DNA of 40,859 nt from a virus (Duplodnaviria; Heunggongvirae; Uroviricota; Caudoviricetes), in IMG/VR virus record IMGVR_UViG_2597489870_000008, one strand, 5' to 3'. The notes under the pieces are model-generated. The model had not been told where the DNA came from and searched no databases. It worked only from the letters and a program-made list of their open reading frames with translations. The translations under genes and the position numbers were made by a program. Positions 3,868-34,686 of this stretch are shown in pieces; the stretch's first letter is position 1; the number at the start of each line of letters is the position of its first letter.

Positions 3868-4215
3868 GCGGCGAAAAGGGATGTGGGTACAGGAGAAAAT
3901 CAGATACCGGATATGTCAGCCTGGAAAAGAAATCCGAGTTCTAATCGCTGGAGAAAATTGCCTGATGGAACCATCATTCAAATGGGAATATCAGCATCAG
4001 GGCCATTAGGCTCACCTGTAAATATCACCCTGCCGATATCTTTCAGCAATACCAATTATTGTGTTGTTGCATCGTACGATAATGCACGGTCAGGTGTGTC
4101 AACAATGGTTAGTTTTGCAGCGTTACCTGTTTCACCATCGCAATTTTCCCTGATGTCATCAGTGACTGAGCAAGGAATAAATCCTTTTGCTTACTGGATT
4201 GCTTTTGGAGATTAA
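3859..4215 (+). CDS. Alternative tail-fibre C-terminal variable segment (no start of its own; becomes fused to the constant N-terminus after inversion)
   Basis: Open frame begins exactly at the crossover site on a TTG codon (GLGE junction shared with the fibre gene); an inversion would join it in frame to the constant part at 6024..5735. Confidence 0.65.
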   Translation: MGEAAKRDVGTGENQIPDMSAWKRNPSSNRWRKLPDGTIIQMGISASGPLGSPVNITLPISFSNTNYCVVASYDNARSGVSTMVSFAALPVSPSQFSLMSSVTEQGINPFAYWIAFGD

Positions 4216-4218
4216 TAA

Positions 4219-4638
4219 ATGGACAGATACTTCTATTCACAAAAAGAAAATGGTTTTTTTACCGATTTAAATAAAGCACCTTCAGATGCTGTTGAGATAA
4301 CCACGGATGAATGGCTGTCACTACTGGATGGTCAGGATAATGGCATGAAAATAGTCAGCAATCAGGAGGGATATCCGGTTTTGACAGAGCAACCACCTTT
4401 ATCAAAAGAAAACCTTATTGCATTGGCAGAGTTGAAAAAAGGAAAACTTATTAATGAAGCCAACGAGCACATGAACAACAGGCAATGGCCTGGTAAAGCG
4501 GCGATTGGTCGCCTGAAAGGTGAGGAACTGGTGCAATATAATTTGTGGCTGGATTATCTGGACGCACTGGAACTGGTCGATACTTCCGGTGCGCCAGATA
4601 TTGAATGGCCTACGCCTCCGGCAGTTCAGGCCAGATGA
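4219..4638 (+). CDS. Tail-fibre assembly protein (alternative orientation)
   Basis: 139-aa ORF; the C-terminal DTSGAPDIEWPTPP motif is typical of Tfa proteins; directly downstream of the alternative fibre segment. Confidence 0.75.
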   Translation: MDRYFYSQKENGFFTDLNKAPSDAVEITTDEWLSLLDGQDNGMKIVSNQEGYPVLTEQPPLSKENLIALAELKKGKLINEANEHMNNRQWPGKAAIGRLKGEELVQYNLWLDYLDALELVDTSGAPDIEWPTPPAVQAR

Positions 4639-5203
4639 CGTCCGGCGCTGTGCTGGTATCTGTTGCCGTCACCGCGTCAATATAATCCAGCACAGCGTTA
4701 AGTCGGGTGTTTTCTGGCTGCGTCAGCTTCCGCCCGGCCTGTAATTTCAGTTGAATCAGACTGATGGAAGCCATTGCAGCATCAATCAGCGACTGGCGCT
4801 GTGCTTCTGCCGCTTCTACTGCGGCACCGTGTTGTGCCTCAGTATCTGTCACCCATTTCTCACCATCCCATTTATCATATGGCGTTAACGGTGAAAGCGT
4901 GACATAACCGTTTTTGATGGCACCGATATAATCCACTGTAACAGCTGCGCCATTTTCTGTTGAGTAAACAGTCTCATTGCGATGGTCTTCTTCATGGCTC
5001 CATCCCTTACCCGTAAATATTGCCACTCTTCCCGGAATGTATTCGCCCGGGTCAATACCAGTGGAACAGGCGGGCATACTTACGCCAGTATTAATATATT
5101 CATCAGACCAGCCCGTATATTCAGACGTTACTGCATCATAATAATAACAACGCATATCACCCGGTACTGTAGCCAGCCCATTTTCATCAAAAACAGGTTT
5201 CAT
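4610..5203 (-). CDS. Tail-fibre assembly protein (currently expressed orientation)
   Basis: 197-aa ORF starting [10 protein letters not shown] with C-terminal DTSTAPDVIWPELP; follows the tail-fibre gene and converges on the other tfa. Confidence 0.8.
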   Translation of the reverse strand: MKPVFDENGLATVPGDMRCYYYDAVTSEYTGWSDEYINTGVSMPACSTGIDPGEYIPGRVAIFTGKGWSHEEDHRNETVYSTENGAAVTVDYIGAIKNGYVTLSPLTPYDKWDGEKWVTDTEAQHGAAVEAAEAQRQSLIDAAMASISLIQLKLQAGRKLTQPENTRLNAVLDYIDAVTATDTSTAPDVIWPELPEA

Positions 5204-29881: not shown

Positions 29882-30531
29882 GCCGCCATCTCCCTGACCA
29901 GTTTTTCCGCCTGCTGGCGAACCTGCGCCAGAAACGCCTCACCACATGCCTCAAGTTCATCGCGCCCGATGTAGCTGATTGCCGGTCCCTTCCAGGTCTT
30001 GTCAAAAACAGCAATAGCACCAGCGAAAAAAGCTCCTGTCGGTACCTGCTTCTCGTCTTTCGGGATAAACCAGACAGGCAGTTCAAAACCAATACGCCCG
30101 CGAATAAAAGCAATATGATCTGCATCTTCCGGCCACCACACTTCGCTGGTGGCAGCTTTGATCAGGAAAACATAGCGCCCGCCCTTATCACGCATGGCAC
30201 TGGCATGTTTCATGATGTAACGCATGCCGGTGATGTATTGCCCCTCATGCTGACTGGCGCGGCTGTATGGGGGATTACCAAAGGCAGCACCTTTAAGCTC
30301 CGCAAGACGTTCTGACCAGTCATGCGCCAGCGCGTTGTCTTCCGCCGTGTAATACGCGGCACATTTGGCGTTATCACCGTCAGTGAACAGATCCAGAACA
30401 AACGGGCCAAACAGGGTGTTAATTCCCCAGAAAATGTTGTCCGGCGTGCGCCACTGATCGCCCACTTCCTTCAGTTCATGGGCTGGTTTGTTCCGCAGTT
30501 CCACCAGCGCCTGGCAATATTTATTACTCAT
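29878..30531 (-). CDS. Phage N6-adenine DNA methyltransferase (Dam-like)
   Basis: ORF with the NPPY motif (AFGNPPYSRA) characteristic of amino-methyltransferases; start at the Met at 30531 overlapping the upstream stop. Confidence 0.75.
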   Translation of the reverse strand: MSNKYCQALVELRNKPAHELKEVGDQWRTPDNIFWGINTLFGPFVLDLFTDGDNAKCAAYYTAEDNALAHDWSERLAELKGAAFGNPPYSRASQHEGQYITGMRYIMKHASAMRDKGGRYVFLIKAATSEVWWPEDADHIAFIRGRIGFELPVWFIPKDEKQVPTGAFFAGAIAVFDKTWKGPAISYIGRDELEACGEAFLAQVRQQAEKLVREMAA

Positions 30532-31025
30532 TAAGCCCCCACGTAATTCCCTGACAGATACCACTCTTCACCCGATGCAGCGCGCTTGCTGCTTTTCCGT
30601 AAGCACCGCTCACGACGCGCCAGAAAATTGTTTCGTTCTGGCTGGGAGTGGCTTTCACGGAATGCCGCCATCCACACGGTTGCAGCACGACGGTATAAGC
30701 CCCTGGACTCCAGTTCTTCCGCCTGGCGGGTCAGGCACAAAATCACACGGGGATCGTTAGTGCCGACATAGAAATTGCGCACAGATCTGGTTTCACGAAC
30801 TGGTTGTGGTTCCGGTTCCTGCGCTCTCTCAGTCAGGCGCGGGAAATGTCTGCGTGTATCTCCTTCACAACGGTGAGCCACACGCCCACTCTGACGTAAC
30901 TTGCTTGCTGACTGCAGAACGCGCTGCCGTGAGTAACCGGCAAAAGCATCCGCAATATCTCCGGAAGTACAGCCCGGATGGGCTTCAATGAATTTCTGAA
31001 CGTCATTCAAAAGACTCATGCTCAC
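30531..31025 (-). CDS. Regulatory protein with a PerC/Pch-like C-terminal region
   Basis: 164-aa ORF; C-terminal AEELESRGLYRRAATVWMAAF…RRERCLRKS matches the PerC-family signature as I recall it. Confidence 0.45.
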   Translation of the reverse strand: MSMSLLNDVQKFIEAHPGCTSGDIADAFAGYSRQRVLQSASKLRQSGRVAHRCEGDTRRHFPRLTERAQEPEPQPVRETRSVRNFYVGTNDPRVILCLTRQAEELESRGLYRRAATVWMAAFRESHSQPERNNFLARRERCLRKSSKRAASGEEWYLSGNYVGA

Positions 31026-31963
31026 CCCCTGAATCCTGCCGGGATCTGGCTGTAGTCCACGTTGTCGTAACTGGCTTTGAAGTACGGGTCTTCGCGTTTT
31101 TCGGTGTACGTGCTGACGGACGGCGATAAGCGCAGGGAAAGCTCATCCCATTTTTCCCGCAGCTTCGACGGGCTGAGCACGTTACGGCACCAGAACGGAT
31201 CGCGACTGACGCGGCTGTACATCTCGCAGATTTGTTTATGAGTACGACCATCCTGCACACACATCAGGCGAATTTCGTTTGCCCAGGCTGTCCAGTTCGG
31301 TTCTTTGGGACGAACCACCTCGCCGTCACATTCGGCGGCCTGCTCGTACAGGGCGATGATTTTTTTCCAGAGCCACTGTGCGCAGGTCAAATTATCCTGC
31401 GTTCCCCACTGGCGCTTTTTAGGGCTGAATACAACCGCATCAGGATGGCGAGTTAAAAACTCCTGTTCAGCCGTCTGCGTGTCCGGTTGCGAAGCGTCCG
31501 GACGAGAAGTTTTTTTATCTGACGGATCATGTTTTGATTTTACTGACGGATCCCCGCCAGATTCTGACGGGTGAAAACCCGCTTTTTTGCCAGATTTCGA
31601 CGCATCAAATTTTGACGGGTCAGATTTTGATGCGTCAGATTTTGACGGGTCAGAATCTGACAGTTGAGAAAATGCCGCTGCCTGAAGCTTCGCAACGTTA
31701 AGCTGATAAACATTCGACGCATTGCGGTTACCCTGGCGACGCGCCTTACGCGTTAACCAGCCTTCTGCTTCCAGCCGTGCGATAGCCGTTCTGACGGTAC
31801 TCATTCCCGCGCTAATCTGGCGGGCAATGGTTTCAATTGATGGCCAACACACACCTTCGTCATTACTGAAATCAGCCAGGCGGGCCATAATTGCCACGCT
31901 GGATAACTTCATGCCTGACGCAGCGCAACCATCCCATACATAGCCGGTTAATTTAGTGCTCAT
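31022..31963 (-). CDS. Replication initiation protein (O-like replisome organiser) with an internal iteron-encoded repeat
   Basis: 313-aa ORF with an N-terminal winged-helix region (…ETIARQISAGMSTVRTAIARLEAEGWL…) and a central SDSDPSKSDASKSDPSKFDASKSG repeat encoded by DNA iterons; GAGG RBS. Confidence 0.75.
   Translation of the reverse strand: MSTKLTGYVWDGCAASGMKLSSVAIMARLADFSNDEGVCWPSIETIARQISAGMSTVRTAIARLEAEGWLTRKARRQGNRNASNVYQLNVAKLQAAAFSQLSDSDPSKSDASKSDPSKFDASKSGKKAGFHPSESGGDPSVKSKHDPSDKKTSRPDASQPDTQTAEQEFLTRHPDAVVFSPKKRQWGTQDNLTCAQWLWKKIIALYEQAAECDGEVVRPKEPNWTAWANEIRLMCVQDGRTHKQICEMYSRVSRDPFWCRNVLSPSKLREKWDELSLRLSPSVSTYTEKREDPYFKASYDNVDYSQIPAGFRG
31516..31663. repeat. Iteron array (about 8 copies of a roughly 15-bp CAGATTTTGACGGGT-like motif); candidate replication origin within the initiator gene
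   Basis: Tandem degenerate direct repeats visible in the DNA (…cagattctgacgggtg…caaattttgacgggtcagattttgatgcgtcagattttgacgggtcagaatctgacag). Confidence 0.55.
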
Positions 31964-31972
31964 GACCGACCT

Positions 31973-32311
31973 CTATTTCCCTGAATTTACGACGAAACTG
32001 TTCGAGCGGGCTGAAGCACTCATGCTCATAGCCTTCGCGGAGGTAGATAACCCGTTGTGTTTCCGGTTCCCAACGAATGACTCTGACGGGCACTCCGTAG
32101 TGATCTTTGAACCAGCGGTTAACTTGTTGCAAAGGACTGTCTCCTTCTGCCGGTTGAAATCACCCACAGCCCACTCTGCAAATCTGTGGGTTACAATTTC
32201 CCTGTCACCTGGTACATTCACTGCATAGCAATACTCCACCTTCGCTTTTCCACCCGGTACAGGAAGCGCAATCAGTTGCGAGCGACGGTAGTGTGTTGTT
32301 AAACTGTTCAT
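31973..32311 (-). CDS. Hypothetical early protein (CII position, function unknown)
   Basis: 112-aa ORF whose ATG overlaps the stop of the upstream gene; ends 10 nt before the initiator gene. Confidence 0.5.
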
Positions 32312-32892
32312 GCGTTAGTTTCTCCACAACCAGAAGCAATCGACGCCACGACGCCCGGAGCTGCACACTCGCGGGCGTTACTCTTTTCCGGCGCACAAAA
32401 AACACGAAATAACAGTGTTAAATGCTCCTGCCACTTCGCCATTACTTGGTAGCTGTTCTCTTCGATTTGCTCACGCTCAGCCTGGTCAATAACTCCATCA
32501 GCAGTTGCCTTGCGTAAGTACTGGGAATGCTTGCCAATCCATTCTATTGACTCCATCAGCCGCTGATTAATGTCACCATTGTCAATGTCATCAATGACCA
32601 CCAGCGGCACAAACACCCCATTACTACGACGGGCTATTGCATCTGTTACATGCCTGGTACCACTGGCATCCTGTAAAACCATGGCCCACTCAAGTGGAAA
32701 AATTTGATCCCCACCGCTACGCAGTCTGTTATGCAATTGATCTTTTGCTGGGGTGATATCATCAGATTTATACAAACCAAGAATTTTTGCTGCTTCCTCA
32801 TAGCCATGAGGTAAATCAGCAATCGTTCTTCGTATTGCTGCCACCAGCCATGCTGGTTGTTTATCAACTTTCCATTCAGGTTCTTTACCCAC
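32308..32892 (-). CDS. Hypothetical early protein (194 aa; probable GTG start)
   Basis: ORF following the cro-like gene with GAGGA 8 nt upstream of the GTG at 32892; possibly YdaT-like, unverified. Confidence 0.5.
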
Positions 32893-32919: not shown

Positions 32920-33117
32920 TTATGCCGCAGCACTGTTAGTCTTTTGATATAAAGACACGTCAACTTTCAGTTTCCCGTTAGTAATTTTTTCTAACTGGTA
33001 CGCTCGGCCTTCAGGAATAATCTCAGGCCACTCTGAAACAGACGGATGCTTAATACCTAGGGCTTCGGCGGTTTTACAAACTCCGCCGAAATAATTAATC
33101 ACGTCGGATTTCCGCAT
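32920..33117 (-). CDS. Cro-like repressor (YdaS/Cro family HTH)
   Basis: 65-aa ORF (MRKSDVINYFGGVCKTAEALGIKHPSVSEW…) divergent from the cI-like gene; GGGAGA RBS. Confidence 0.7.
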   Translation of the reverse strand: MRKSDVINYFGGVCKTAEALGIKHPSVSEWPEIIPEGRAYQLEKITNGKLKVDVSLYQKTNSAAA

Positions 33118-33148
33118 TTCTGTCTCCCGTTAAATTACGTTAAGCAGA

Positions 33149-33178
33149 AATGTAGGATATCCAACATGTCAATGTCAA
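33149..33178 (-). promoter_or_regulatory. PR-like promoter (TTGACA-N18-TACATT on the minus strand) overlapping an 18-bp operator ATGTAGGATATCCAACAT
   Basis: The -35 and -10 hexamers lie on the minus strand with the palindromic operator at 33150-33167 across the -10; the same module recurs inverted downstream of cI. Confidence 0.5.
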
Positions 33179-33212
33179 GAATCCTACATTGGCATGTGGT
33201 AGGATTGCCTAC

Positions 33213-33866
33213 ATGATGAACATGAGTGATCGTATTCGCCAAAGGCGAAAAGAACTGAACCTGACACAACAAGCACTGGCTGATTTGACTGGTGTGAACC
33301 GTGTCACGGTTACTGGATGGGAAAAGGACGACTACCAACCAAATGGAGCCAACCTTCAAGCCCTAGCCAACGCACTTAAATGCGATCCTCTGTGGCTTGT
33401 TAGCGGAAAAGGCTCGCCTGAACCAAAGATAAATCTAAAACCTGAAATATTCGCAGTTAAAAAAGTCCCCCTCATCTCGTGGGTTCAGGCGGGTTCATGG
33501 ACAATGACGGAGCCTGGTGTCAGGAAAGAAGATGCTGAAGAGTGGGTTTATACTACCGCCCTTGTATCAGAAATGGCATTTGCACTACGGGTCCGTGGTG
33601 ATTCAATGACCAATCCCCTCGGCTCACCATCGATACCAGAAGGTTCTATCGTTATCGTAGAGCCAGATATTATTGATACAGAGTGTATTAACGGAAAAAT
33701 CGTTGTTGCCCATATCAATGGTGGGCAAGAAGCGACACTCAAAAAATTTGTTGAGGACTGGCCGAACAGGTATCTCGTCCCACTAAATCCTAACTATAAA
33801 ACTATTGAATGCGGTGAGAACTGCAGAATAGTTGGTCTTGTCAAACAAGTAATAATGGATTTTTGA
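33213..33866 (+). CDS. CI-like prophage repressor (HTH plus LexA-like S24 peptidase domain)
   Basis: ORF with an N-terminal HTH (…LNLTQQALADLTGVNRVTVTGWEKDD…) and C-terminal S24 autocleavage region (…LRVRGDSMTNPLGSPSIPEGSIVIVEP…); no SD, so possibly leaderless. Confidence 0.85.
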   Translation: MMNMSDRIRQRRKELNLTQQALADLTGVNRVTVTGWEKDDYQPNGANLQALANALKCDPLWLVSGKGSPEPKINLKPEIFAVKKVPLISWVQAGSWTMTEPGVRKEDAEEWVYTTALVSEMAFALRVRGDSMTNPLGSPSIPEGSIVIVEPDIIDTECINGKIVVAHINGGQEATLKKFVEDWPNRYLVPLNPNYKTIECGENCRIVGLVKQVIMDF

Positions 33867-33886
33867 CACATCTTCCTCACTATCGC

Positions 33887-33912
33887 AAAACCGGGGTATC
33901 CCCGGTTTTTTT
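33887..33912 (+). terminator. Intrinsic terminator downstream of cI (CCGGGG-tat-CCCCGG plus T7)
   Basis: Perfect 6-bp GC stem followed by seven T, 25 nt after the cI stop. Confidence 0.6.
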
Positions 33913-33928
33913 ATGAGCCTATCTTTTT

Positions 33929-33982
33929 ATGTAGGATAACCAACATAAACTCTTGACACTCACATGTTGGATATCCTACATT
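33929..33982 (+). promoter_or_regulatory. PL-like rightward promoter (TTGACA 33953-33958, TACATT 33977-33982) flanked by two operator copies
   Basis: Operators ATGTAGGATAACCAACAT (33929-33946) and ATGTTGGATATCCTACAT (33964-33981) bracket a consensus -35 and overlap the -10. Confidence 0.5.
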
Positions 33983-34140
33983 TGTTTTTAGAGTTGTGGT
34001 GAAGGCGCAGGCTGATGCGCGAAAGACATTGCAGCTATTGCGGAAAAGAGCTGTTCGGCGGGGCAATTAAACGCCCGTGAGAGTCTGAAATAACCGCAAG
34101 CCGGAGATCAGCACCGGTCACCACAACAGCCACTGCTTTG

Positions 34141-34187
34141 GCGGTACCAGTTTGTACACTTGCTTCCGGCTGGTACCGCTCTTTTTA
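34141..34187 (+). terminator. Leader terminator or attenuator in the early-right operon (10-bp stem plus UCUUUUU)
   Basis: GCGGTACCAG…CTGGTACCGC perfect 10-bp stem with a 19-nt loop followed by TCTTTTTAC, about 170 nt downstream of the PL-like promoter and before the first gene. Confidence 0.45.
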
Positions 34188-34323
34188 CAAAACAGAGAAG
34201 AGCATCACCGGACGACGGGCTCATAACCCAATCCATCCGGGCGGCTGCCACCGCAGGTGTTCTTCTCTGTTTTGTGGAGAAACCAACCGACCTTGCAGGG
34301 TCGATATGATGAGGAGCAGCAAA

Positions 34324-34686
34324 ATGGCTAGCGAACGCAGTACTGATGTGCAGGCATTTATCGGGGAGCTGGACGGCGGCGTATTTGAAACCAAAATCGG
34401 CGCAGTTCTCAGTGAAGTCGCTTCAGGTGTGATGAACACGAAAACCAAAGGTAAGGTCTCACTCAACCTGGAAATCGAACCATTTGATGAGATCCGTGTA
34501 AAAATCAAACACAAACTCTCATATGTTCGCCCGACTAACCGCGGGAAAATTTCCGAAGAAGACACCACCGAAACGCCGATGTATGTCAATCGCGGTGGTC
34601 GCCTGACTATTCTGCAGGAAGACCAGGGACAATTACTGACTCTTGCCGGTGAACCTGACGGAAAACTCCGCGCAGCAGGTCATTAA
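34324..34686 (+). CDS. Hypothetical early protein (120 aa; possibly YfdP-like)
   Basis: GAGGAG 7 nt upstream of the ATG at 34324; first gene of the rightward early operon; no family recognised with confidence. Confidence 0.55.
   Translation: MASERSTDVQAFIGELDGGVFETKIGAVLSEVASGVMNTKTKGKVSLNLEIEPFDEIRVKIKHKLSYVRPTNRGKISEEDTTETPMYVNRGGRLTILQEDQGQLLTLAGEPDGKLRAAGH

Follow-up and report, generated by a model that had tools for sequence, protein, structure and literature searches.

A probable lambda-style lysis-lysogeny switch with a defined 18-bp operator, and a candidate leader RNA, in an SfV/mEp460-like Escherichia coli prophage

The immunity region around the cI-like repressor gene of IMG/VR virus record IMGVR_UViG_2597489870_000008 was analyzed, and the whole 40,859-nt stretch of this record is called the window here. 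In a lambdoid, SfV/mEp460-like E. coli prophage, this region very likely controls the choice between lysis and lysogeny, and it would work as the switch of lambda does. Divergent cro (33117..32920, minus strand) and cI (33213..33866, plus strand) genes surround a multi-operator region, as expected of a lambdoid switch. Similarly, a second operator cluster with an outward promoter lies on the far side of cI. Mechanistically, nothing is new when compared with the lambda paradigm; this is an ordinary lambda-style switch, the operator of which is now defined. The more unusual item is a 135-nt leader element just beyond it, which would be the first thing transcribed from the early promoter PL and which lies outside the coordinates of an earlier, sequence-only reading of this region.

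Operators and promoters flanking cI

The 18-bp pattern ATGTWGGATAWCCWACAT was searched on both strands of the whole window with up to three mismatches. Matches were confined to 33150-33167, 33929-33946, and 33964-33981. These amount to six strand-hits against 0.19 expected, and none of 100 shuffled sequences reached six. The sequence-only reading had described an 18-bp near-palindromic operator in three copies, and all three were recovered at these positions, far above chance. It had left further copies to a motif search, which now adds two weaker sites, 33197-33214 and 33172-33189.

A weight matrix for the operator half-site was trained on operators from outside the window only, and 40,842 window positions were scored. 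Lambda names are used for the operator clusters (right, OR; left, OL) and for the promoters (early, PR and PL; maintenance, PRM). The five top scores were OL1 (31.5 bits), OR1 (31.5 bits), OL2 (28.5 bits), OR3 (17.0 bits), and OR2 (12.4 bits), and the maximum over 30 shuffles was 13.2 bits. All five top scores of the 40.8 kb sit in the two intergenic regions that flank cI. The consensus of the half-site is A-T-G-T-W-G-G-A-T, in which G3, T4, and G7 are invariant among 34 half-sites. The ranking indicates that OR has three sites and OL has two. The single operator that the earlier reading placed on the cro side has therefore been replaced by three, the degenerate sites at 33197-33214 and 33172-33189 having been overlooked. 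The sole operator-like 18-mer outside the immunity region, ATGGAGAATACCCCACAT at 11691-11708, scored 11.9 bits, within the range of the shuffles, and is probably a chance occurrence. A literature search with the operator sequence as a text string returned nothing relevant and no description of these operators; the operators of this immunity region appear not to have been described before.

OR1, OR2, and OR3 all lie within the 95-bp cro/cI intergenic region, and OR1 and OR2 overlap the hexamers of PR. PR (33149..33178, minus strand) has the -35 hexamer TTGACA at 33178..33173, an 18-nt spacer, and the -10 hexamer TACATT at 33154..33149. Both hexamers are invariant in the eight comparison loci described below. 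The strong operator OR1 (33150..33167, ATGTAGGATATCCAACAT, no mismatches) covers the spacer and the -10 of PR. OR3 (33197..33214, TGGTAGGATTGCCTACAT) ranks fourth, is above the shuffle maximum, and is significant on its own score. It overlaps the start codon of cI and a candidate extended -10 of PRM, TGgTAGGAT (33197-33205). The weak site at 33172..33189 (ATGTCAAGAATCCTACAT) ranks fifth in the window and is a probable OR2. Its left half is the -35 of PR, and its right half matches the half-site consensus and reads TCYTACMT in every locus. Two overlapping TTGACA hexamers are found on this leftward side. The one at 33172..33167 adjoins the operator directly, would leave a 12-nt spacer, and is peculiar to this window; the one at 33178..33173 leaves the 18-nt spacer and recurs in every related locus. 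In the leftward promoter-operator module of the sequence-only reading, the predicted -35 is therefore the hexamer at 33178..33173 and not the one abutting the operator.

On the other side, cI is followed by a terminator (33887..33912, plus strand), AAAACCGGGG-TAT-CCCCGGTTTT with a T-run, which forms a perfect 10-bp hairpin at 33887-33909. It is flanked by an A-tract and a T-tract and is potentially bidirectional, and a hairpin with a T-run is found at the same place in all loci. OL2 (33929..33946, ATGTAGGATAACCAACAT) lies upstream of the -35 of PL. PL (33953..33982, plus strand) has TTGACA at 33953-58, an 18-nt spacer, and TACATT at 33977-82, with a predicted start at about 33989. CTTGACAC and the TACATT of PL are invariant in the eight loci. 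OL1 (33964..33981, ATGTTGGATATCCTACAT) covers the spacer and the -10. In a consensus scan, PR and PL both matched 10/12 positions and shared the identical geometry TTGACA-18-TACATT, both directed away from cI. Each -10 is overlapped by an operator, OR1 at PR and OL1 at PL, as the earlier reading had proposed, and the third operator that it placed upstream of the rightward -35 is OL2.

The PR and PL modules form a 40-nt inverted repeat (33141-33180 and 33951-33990, 88% complementary), so the inverted module that had been noted beyond the cI terminator is present. It is no special feature: since the map equals that of lambda, the duplication is the normal resemblance between PR/OR1 and PL/OL1, which resemble each other likewise in lambda itself. 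The two copies might alternatively be recombination sites of an invertible cI segment, which would make the switch phase-variable, and it is a point for this idea that the repeat brackets 770 bp holding exactly one gene. The idea is nevertheless highly improbable and was rejected. The identity is limited to the -35, the operator, and the -10; the 5 bp between the -35 and the operator differ (ttgac versus ctcac). The same elements are individually conserved across genera, with the kind of variation seen among operators. The segment has one orientation relative to cro and the terminator in 142 of 142 E. coli records and in all 8 diverged loci, and no invertase gene is adjacent.

The repressor and conservation of the switch in diverged loci

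The cI-like repressor (33213..33866, plus strand) has 217 aa when read from ATG 33213 and matches HTH_3 (PF01381, 1e-15) and Peptidase_S24 (PF00717, 4e-25). The S24 domain contains the cleavage-site motif WVQAG (QAG), the serine in GDSM, and the lysine in LKKF, all conserved in the alignment. The repressor is a protein with an N-terminal helix-turn-helix (HTH) and a C-terminal LexA/S24 domain and is predicted to be self-cleaving. Among solved structures, intact lambda cI is its best relative (3bdn, 7e-25), and P22 C2 is the closest to its N-terminal domain (4e-14). The divergent cro-like gene (32920..33117, minus strand) encodes 65 aa of the P22_Cro family (PF14549, 7.6e-22). These assignments agree with the repressor-like and Cro-like roles given to both proteins before.

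Eight loci were used for comparison, from Trabulsiella, Enterobacter soli, Pantoea brenneri, Erwinia tracheiphila, three Proteus species, and Morganella. They represent six other genera and encode repressors 49-90% identical to that of the window. In all eight, a strong operator precedes cI by about 72 bp (OR1) and a weaker one by about 25 bp (OR3). Similarly, all eight have two operators after a terminator, spaced 35 bp from center to center in seven loci and 33 bp in Morganella. The invariant blocks of the alignment are OR1, the -35 and -10 of PR, the right half of OR2, OR3, OL2, the -35 of PL, and OL1 with the -10 of PL. The bases between these blocks are scrambled, and the flanking DNA has diverged. 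At the protein level, all loci share an invariant HTH segment, including the recognition helix GVNRVTVTGWE; in Proteus and Morganella the N-terminal domain is 64-74% identical and the C-terminal domain 44-45%. Cro is kept and conserved in all the diverged loci as well.

Because the layout is kept and the recognition helix is invariant, the 18-mer is very probably the operator read by this repressor, which would define the immunity specificity. The co-conservation of recognition helix and operator over seven genera is the best in silico evidence that the repressor would read the 18-mer. It also bears out the earlier proposal of a concrete operator sequence for this immunity specificity.

Two side observations were made in these loci. 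A third operator-like site, GTGTAGGATGAGTTACAT, is found in the Proteus loci (L007 2266-2283, L008 2266-2283, and L009 1910-1927), 30 bp downstream of OL1 and beyond the -10 of PL; it is missing from the window. In Erwinia tracheiphila, the repressor homologue (L006 1501-2141) has an N-terminal domain that is 98.5% identical and a C-terminal domain that appears truncated or frameshifted. This suggests a decaying prophage that has retained its operators.

Model of the switch and comparison with known phages

The model builds on what is observed: sequence elements that exceed chance expectation and are conserved, the protein families, and a recognition helix that is conserved together with the operator. 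Binding, occupancy order, cooperativity, the position and start site of PRM, and SOS inducibility are its predicted parts. In a lysogen, dimers of the CI-like repressor would bind the 18-bp operators, each made of two 7-bp half-sites, ATGTWGG, around a 4-bp center. Occupied OR1 and OR2 would cover the -10 and -35 of PR and would keep cro, the CII-like activator, and the replication genes off. Similarly, OL1 and OL2, which bracket the -35 of PL and cover its -10, would keep the early operon beyond cI off. OR3 overlaps the start codon of cI and the likely maintenance promoter, so that excess repressor would lower the expression of its own gene. Upon SOS induction, activated RecA would trigger self-cleavage of the S24 domain, and PR and PL would be freed. 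Cro would then bind the same operators.

The topology, cro <- PR/OR/PRM -> cI -> terminator -> OL/PL -> early operon, is that of lambda. So are the three-operator OR, the repressor of HTH plus LexA-type S24 domain, and the CII-type activator and O-type initiator downstream of cro. Unlike lambda, the operators of the window have 18 bp (7+4+7) and not 17 bp, and OL consists of two operators, spaced 35 bp, where lambda has three. The distance between OL and OR is about 0.8 kb in the window and 2.3 kb in lambda, and rexAB is absent from the window. The CII-like protein belongs to the CP76 (phage 186) family and not to that of lambda CII; no N gene or nutL follows PL; and the geometry of PRM is not demonstrably that of lambda.

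The nearest characterized full-length relatives of the repressor are the P22-type C2 proteins and the phage 21 repressor (imm21, as in lambda DE3), with 44-45% identity over 97%, and the Cro protein is likewise of the P22 type. The operators of P22 are 18-bp pseudo-palindromes with a 4-bp center that is not contacted, and their half-site is of the ATTTAAG type. The half-site of the window is ATGTWGG, and the recognition helix, VNRVTVTGWE, is specific to the group of the window. Because both differ from those of P22, the immunity specificity is a distinct one.

Several observations weigh against a switch that follows lambda in every respect. The score of OR2, 12.4 bits, is below the shuffle maximum of 13.2 bits, and the site is supported by its rank, position, and conservation only. 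Three operators per cluster were found at OR only; OL has two in the window, with no further site above 12 bits. OL1 and OL2 are 35 bp apart, about 3.3 helical turns, instead of forming part of three closely spaced sites, so pairwise cooperativity of the lambda style cannot be assumed at OL. The extended -10 candidate in OR3 puts OR2 at -32.5, which is not the activating position of lambda, and activation of the lambda type therefore cannot be assumed either. A candidate PRM of lambda-like geometry does exist (TTGGCA at 33189-94, 17 nt, CATGAT at 33212-17, with a start near ATG 33222 and OR2 at about -42), but its -35 TTGGCA is not conserved in the related loci. Finally, no N-like family was found with Pfam or PHROGs, the first open reading frame (ORF) after PL belonging to phrog_204, and Rfam gave no match in the leader. 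With no N/nut or put element after PL, the antitermination part of the lambda paradigm is not applicable.

Start of the cI mRNA

The sequence-only reading had proposed a leaderless cI mRNA, as from PRM of lambda. ATG 33213 is the sole start codon conserved in all eight loci, and its first two bases are the last two of OR3. TAGGAT (TAGGCT in Proteus) ends 7 nt upstream of this ATG, and TG-n precedes it in seven of the eight loci. The extended -10 that results lies inside OR3, which has a conserved TGGT in place of ATGT; this deviation is what creates the TGn. Judging from this arrangement, the evidence leans somewhat toward a maintenance mRNA that is leaderless and starts at A33213 from a promoter inside OR3. 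A promoter buried in OR3 would give direct negative autoregulation. The leaderless proposal is thus plausible. The lambda-geometry PRM was demoted in favor of the extended -10 candidate because its -35 is unconserved, ATG 33222 is ATA in Morganella, and a 3-bp deletion occurs in two loci.

A leadered cI mRNA can be advanced tentatively. Here, AGGA at 33201-33204 in OR3 would be a Shine-Dalgarno sequence 8 nt before ATG 33213 on transcripts started upstream, either from a PRM upstream of OR3 or from a CII-dependent establishment promoter, reading through cro in the antisense direction. For such transcripts, this reading is as possible as the leaderless one. AGGA-N8-ATG is conserved in six of the eight loci, the Proteus loci having AGGC instead. 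An establishment transcript is to be expected from the presence of the CII-like activator, and TACATT is conserved on the plus strand at 33185-33190, although these bases also form a half-site of OR2. However, a promoter with this TACATT would have its -35 in OR1 and its -10 in OR2 and would be off in a lysogen. For the maintenance transcript, the deviation of OR3 makes a TGn extended -10 exactly 7 nt before the ATG, which favors a start at AUG. Leaderless and leadered mRNAs may also coexist, as in lambda, where the mRNA from PRE, the establishment promoter, is leadered and the mRNA from PRM is leaderless.

Distribution of the immunity region

Among 5,426 complete E. coli genomes, 140 (about 2.6%) carry the 891-bp region with at least 99% identity; in the enterotoxigenic E. 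coli strain H10407 the identity is 100%. The same region is present in Stx2c phages, in the Stx1 phage Lys8385Vzw, in vB_EcoM-720R4, and in SKA5. In the genome paper of Lys8385Vzw, CI, Cro, CII, CIII, and N were listed as absent (PMC7946995). The record of this phage, MT225100 (L001), contains the same cro/cI/CII-like switch at 4021-4967 with 99.5% identity, where CI, Cro, and the CII-like protein are labeled "LexA family transcriptional repressor", "hypothetical protein", and "DNA-binding protein". Only for N and CIII does the listed absence seem to hold. The operator and the invariant recognition helix together could be used to predict superinfection immunity groups and the SOS-dependent induction of toxin phages across Enterobacterales.

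The PL leader and its 135-nt element

The untranslated leader of PL is about 340 nt long (33989-34323) and modular, and it folds far better than shuffled sequences (z = -5.9). It begins with the 135-nt element (33993..34127, plus strand), closed by GTTGTGGTGA and TCACCACAAC and located about 4 nt after the predicted start of PL. A terminator-like hairpin, the inverted repeat GCGGTACCAG...CTGGTACCGC followed by TCTTTTT (34141..34186, plus strand), has a 13-bp stem in the minimum free energy fold. A compensatory change from A-U to G-C is found in this stem in L219. Next to it is a long hairpin of 89 nt (34187..34275, plus strand) with 25-nt arms that are 84% complementary, in the 5' untranslated region of the YfdP-like gene. 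The block 34141-34275 is common to the SfV, SfII, SfIV, cdtI, and Stx2c phages at 95-99%, and the region of the long hairpin is 85% conserved in ST64B and Klebsiella phages.

In most lambdoid copies, the element is located 14-30 nt before a hairpin with a U-tract, and in the window it is 14 nt upstream of the terminator. In ST64B and the Erwinia locus, the start of a gene follows the element in place of the hairpin and U-tract. An attenuator was considered, as the loop AAAAGAGCTGT (34044-54) is complementary to the 3' half of the terminator (34175-85). This complementarity is missing from the cdtI and SfV variants with the same terminator and is therefore probably due to chance.

The put RNA of HK022 measures about 70 nt, folds into two stem-loops that form a V, and comes as a pair, putL and putR (PMC9378689). 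The element of the window is similar in that a candidate structured element is found right after PL, ahead of a terminator, in a phage without N. It differs in having 135 nt, a closed multi-branch fold, and a single copy, and blastn found no significant similarity of the window leader to the early region of HK022. An Enterobacter soli prophage of the same immunity type has a clear homologue of HK022 putL (L004 2319-2376, 85% over 60 nt) about 70 nt downstream of PL. This indicates that phages of this immunity specificity differ in the RNA element next to PL. SfV and the Erwinia locus share another conserved stretch next to PL, ACAGGCAGGACGCC...GGATGATTCG.

A family of candidate tRNA-shaped elements

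The window-type element is found with at least 95% identity in 845 of 5,426 E. coli genomes, at 715 chromosomal places and 237 on plasmids, with one to three copies per genome. The plasmids were P1-like wherever checked (RCS47/JL22-type), and the element was never annotated. In cdtI, SfV, ST64B, and the Erwinia prophage, the same slot contains elements with the same ends and different cores. Two scans of viral contigs gave 214 copies of the family with 52 unique sequences and about 15 core types. Its elements are 115-135 nt long, and their bracket, GTTGTGGT(G)A...CACCACAAC, encloses interchangeable cores. The sites of the family are the starts of the early-left transcripts of SfV/mEp460-like phages and the tRNA operons of P1-like and other phages. 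Besides 33993-34127 of the window, members were located at L012 2501-2635, L134 1395-1509, L011 2358-2481, L013 2296-2418, and L006 2752-2866, and on the minus strand at L017 957-1087 and 1215-1343 and L208 5113-5242.

In all members, a terminal stem of 7-9 bp is followed by 2-3 nt, a short hairpin whose loop has 5-6 nt, and a variable core of 60-90 nt. At the 3' end, the last hairpin abuts the 3' strand of the terminal stem, and the spacing is that of the acceptor, D, and T arms of a tRNA. The stems of the 5' hairpin differ by type (GCGCA/UGCGC, GCGUA/UACGU, CCGCG/CGCGG, and GCUC/GAGC), as do those of the 3' hairpin (GCCGG/CCGGC, CCGGG/CCCGG, and GGUGG/CCACC). One type has a canonical T-arm, GGUGG-UUCGACU-CCACU, with the T-loop GGUUCGACUCC. 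The acceptor-like stem of the family is UGUGGUG/CACCACA. What resembles a tRNA in the element is this acceptor-like stem of 7 bp, the spacer of 2 nt, and two hairpins, one like a D arm and the other, at the 3' strand, like a T arm. Unlike a tRNA, it is without an anticodon arm and a 3' CCA, and its helix continues 2 bp beyond the acceptor stem. Seven copies were found within 600 nt of tRNA genes, some of them 6-10 nt upstream of a tRNA operon, and all seven are on the tRNA strand.

Known families do not account for the element. Rfam, run at the gathering threshold and at E<=10, gave no match in the window, and at 33860-34420 only noise was obtained (E about 0.03 or weaker, far below the gathering score). 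On nine loci with other sub-types Rfam did not match the element, and RF00005 matched only the neighboring true tRNAs. ARAGORN called no gene in the window and no family member, and a literature search with element sequences as text strings returned nothing relevant. P4 CI RNA and P1/P7 c4 RNA are tRNA-like phage regulatory RNAs processed by RNase P; the tRNA, c4, and YrlA models of Rfam gave no match to the element. A mini-ORF of 21 aa in the element (34015-34080, with CxxC) was rejected, as five copies have a TAT to TAA nonsense change, one has a frameshift, and several have non-synonymous changes. A dispersed repeat or miniature inverted-repeat transposable element (MITE) was rejected similarly, with only one to three copies per genome, all in prophages or P1-like plasmids.

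As a tentative proposal, tRNA-shaped non-coding RNAs of phages may form a family so far undescribed, to which 33993-34127 would belong and which would open the early-left transcripts of lambdoid phages lacking N and put. Such an RNA could be excised by tRNA-processing enzymes and act in trans, or it could act in cis and carry RNA polymerase past the terminator. Alternatively, the element may be no functional RNA but DNA that spreads passively as a cassette, for instance a recombination scar or a MITE-like unit with 10-bp terminal inverted repeats; this reading is somewhat doubtful but serious. The ends are sharp at the inverted repeat, and the element occurs on unrelated backbones, lambdoid prophages and P1-like plasmids. 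The fold of the element is only marginally beyond shuffles (z = -2.1 alone and -1.4 with the terminator), and the single-sequence z-scores of the elements are modest (-1.1 to -2.9). Covariation within sub-types is weak as well; RNAalifold gave one compensated pair per alignment, and MAFFT lost the register of the variable cores. Because of the weak covariation and modest z-scores, the element is treated as a candidate structured RNA. Against a passive cassette, the low copy number and the restriction to phage DNA apply here as well. Moreover, the orientation is constant relative to PL, and the tRNA-linked copies are all on the tRNA strand. About 15 cores keep the helix geometry with different stem sequences, one of them with the canonical T-arm, and RCS47 has a compensatory change from G-C to A-T in the closing stem. 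Should the tRNA-shaped RNA prove real, phages would carry a widespread but unannotated RNA at the place where those without N must pass early terminators.

A second unit was observed in the P1-like phage RCS47 (L012 2429-2500). It has 72 nt, a 10-bp terminal stem (GGTAAGGGTA/TACCCTTACC), a GGTTCGAATCC T-loop, and no anticodon arm. ARAGORN did not call this unit, which sits between tRNA-Thr and the bracketed element. Other tRNA-linked loci also contain the junction CACAAC-A-GGTAAGGG.

Neighboring genes

The first gene of the PL operon (34324..34686, plus strand) is YfdP-like, belongs to phrog_204 of unknown function, and has the Shine-Dalgarno sequence GAGGAG 7 nt upstream. It is followed by DUF2303/YfdQ, a dNMP phosphatase, and more early genes. 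In the PR operon, cro is followed by genes for the CP76/CII-like activator, for a protein whose function is unknown, and for an O-like initiator of replication. The activator, the second gene of this operon (32308..32892, minus strand), matches PF06892 (1.2e-6) and phrog_101, "CII-like transcriptional activator" (9e-62). Four 15-bp direct repeats, CAGATTTTGACGGGT, are located at 31591-31654 inside the O-like gene and are probably origin iterons, as in the ori of lambda. Downstream of the O-like gene, the PR operon has a homologue of the PerC-family activators (30531-31025, minus strand; PF06069, 7.8e-9). PerC-like prophage proteins influence virulence regulation in enteropathogenic and enterohemorrhagic E. 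coli.

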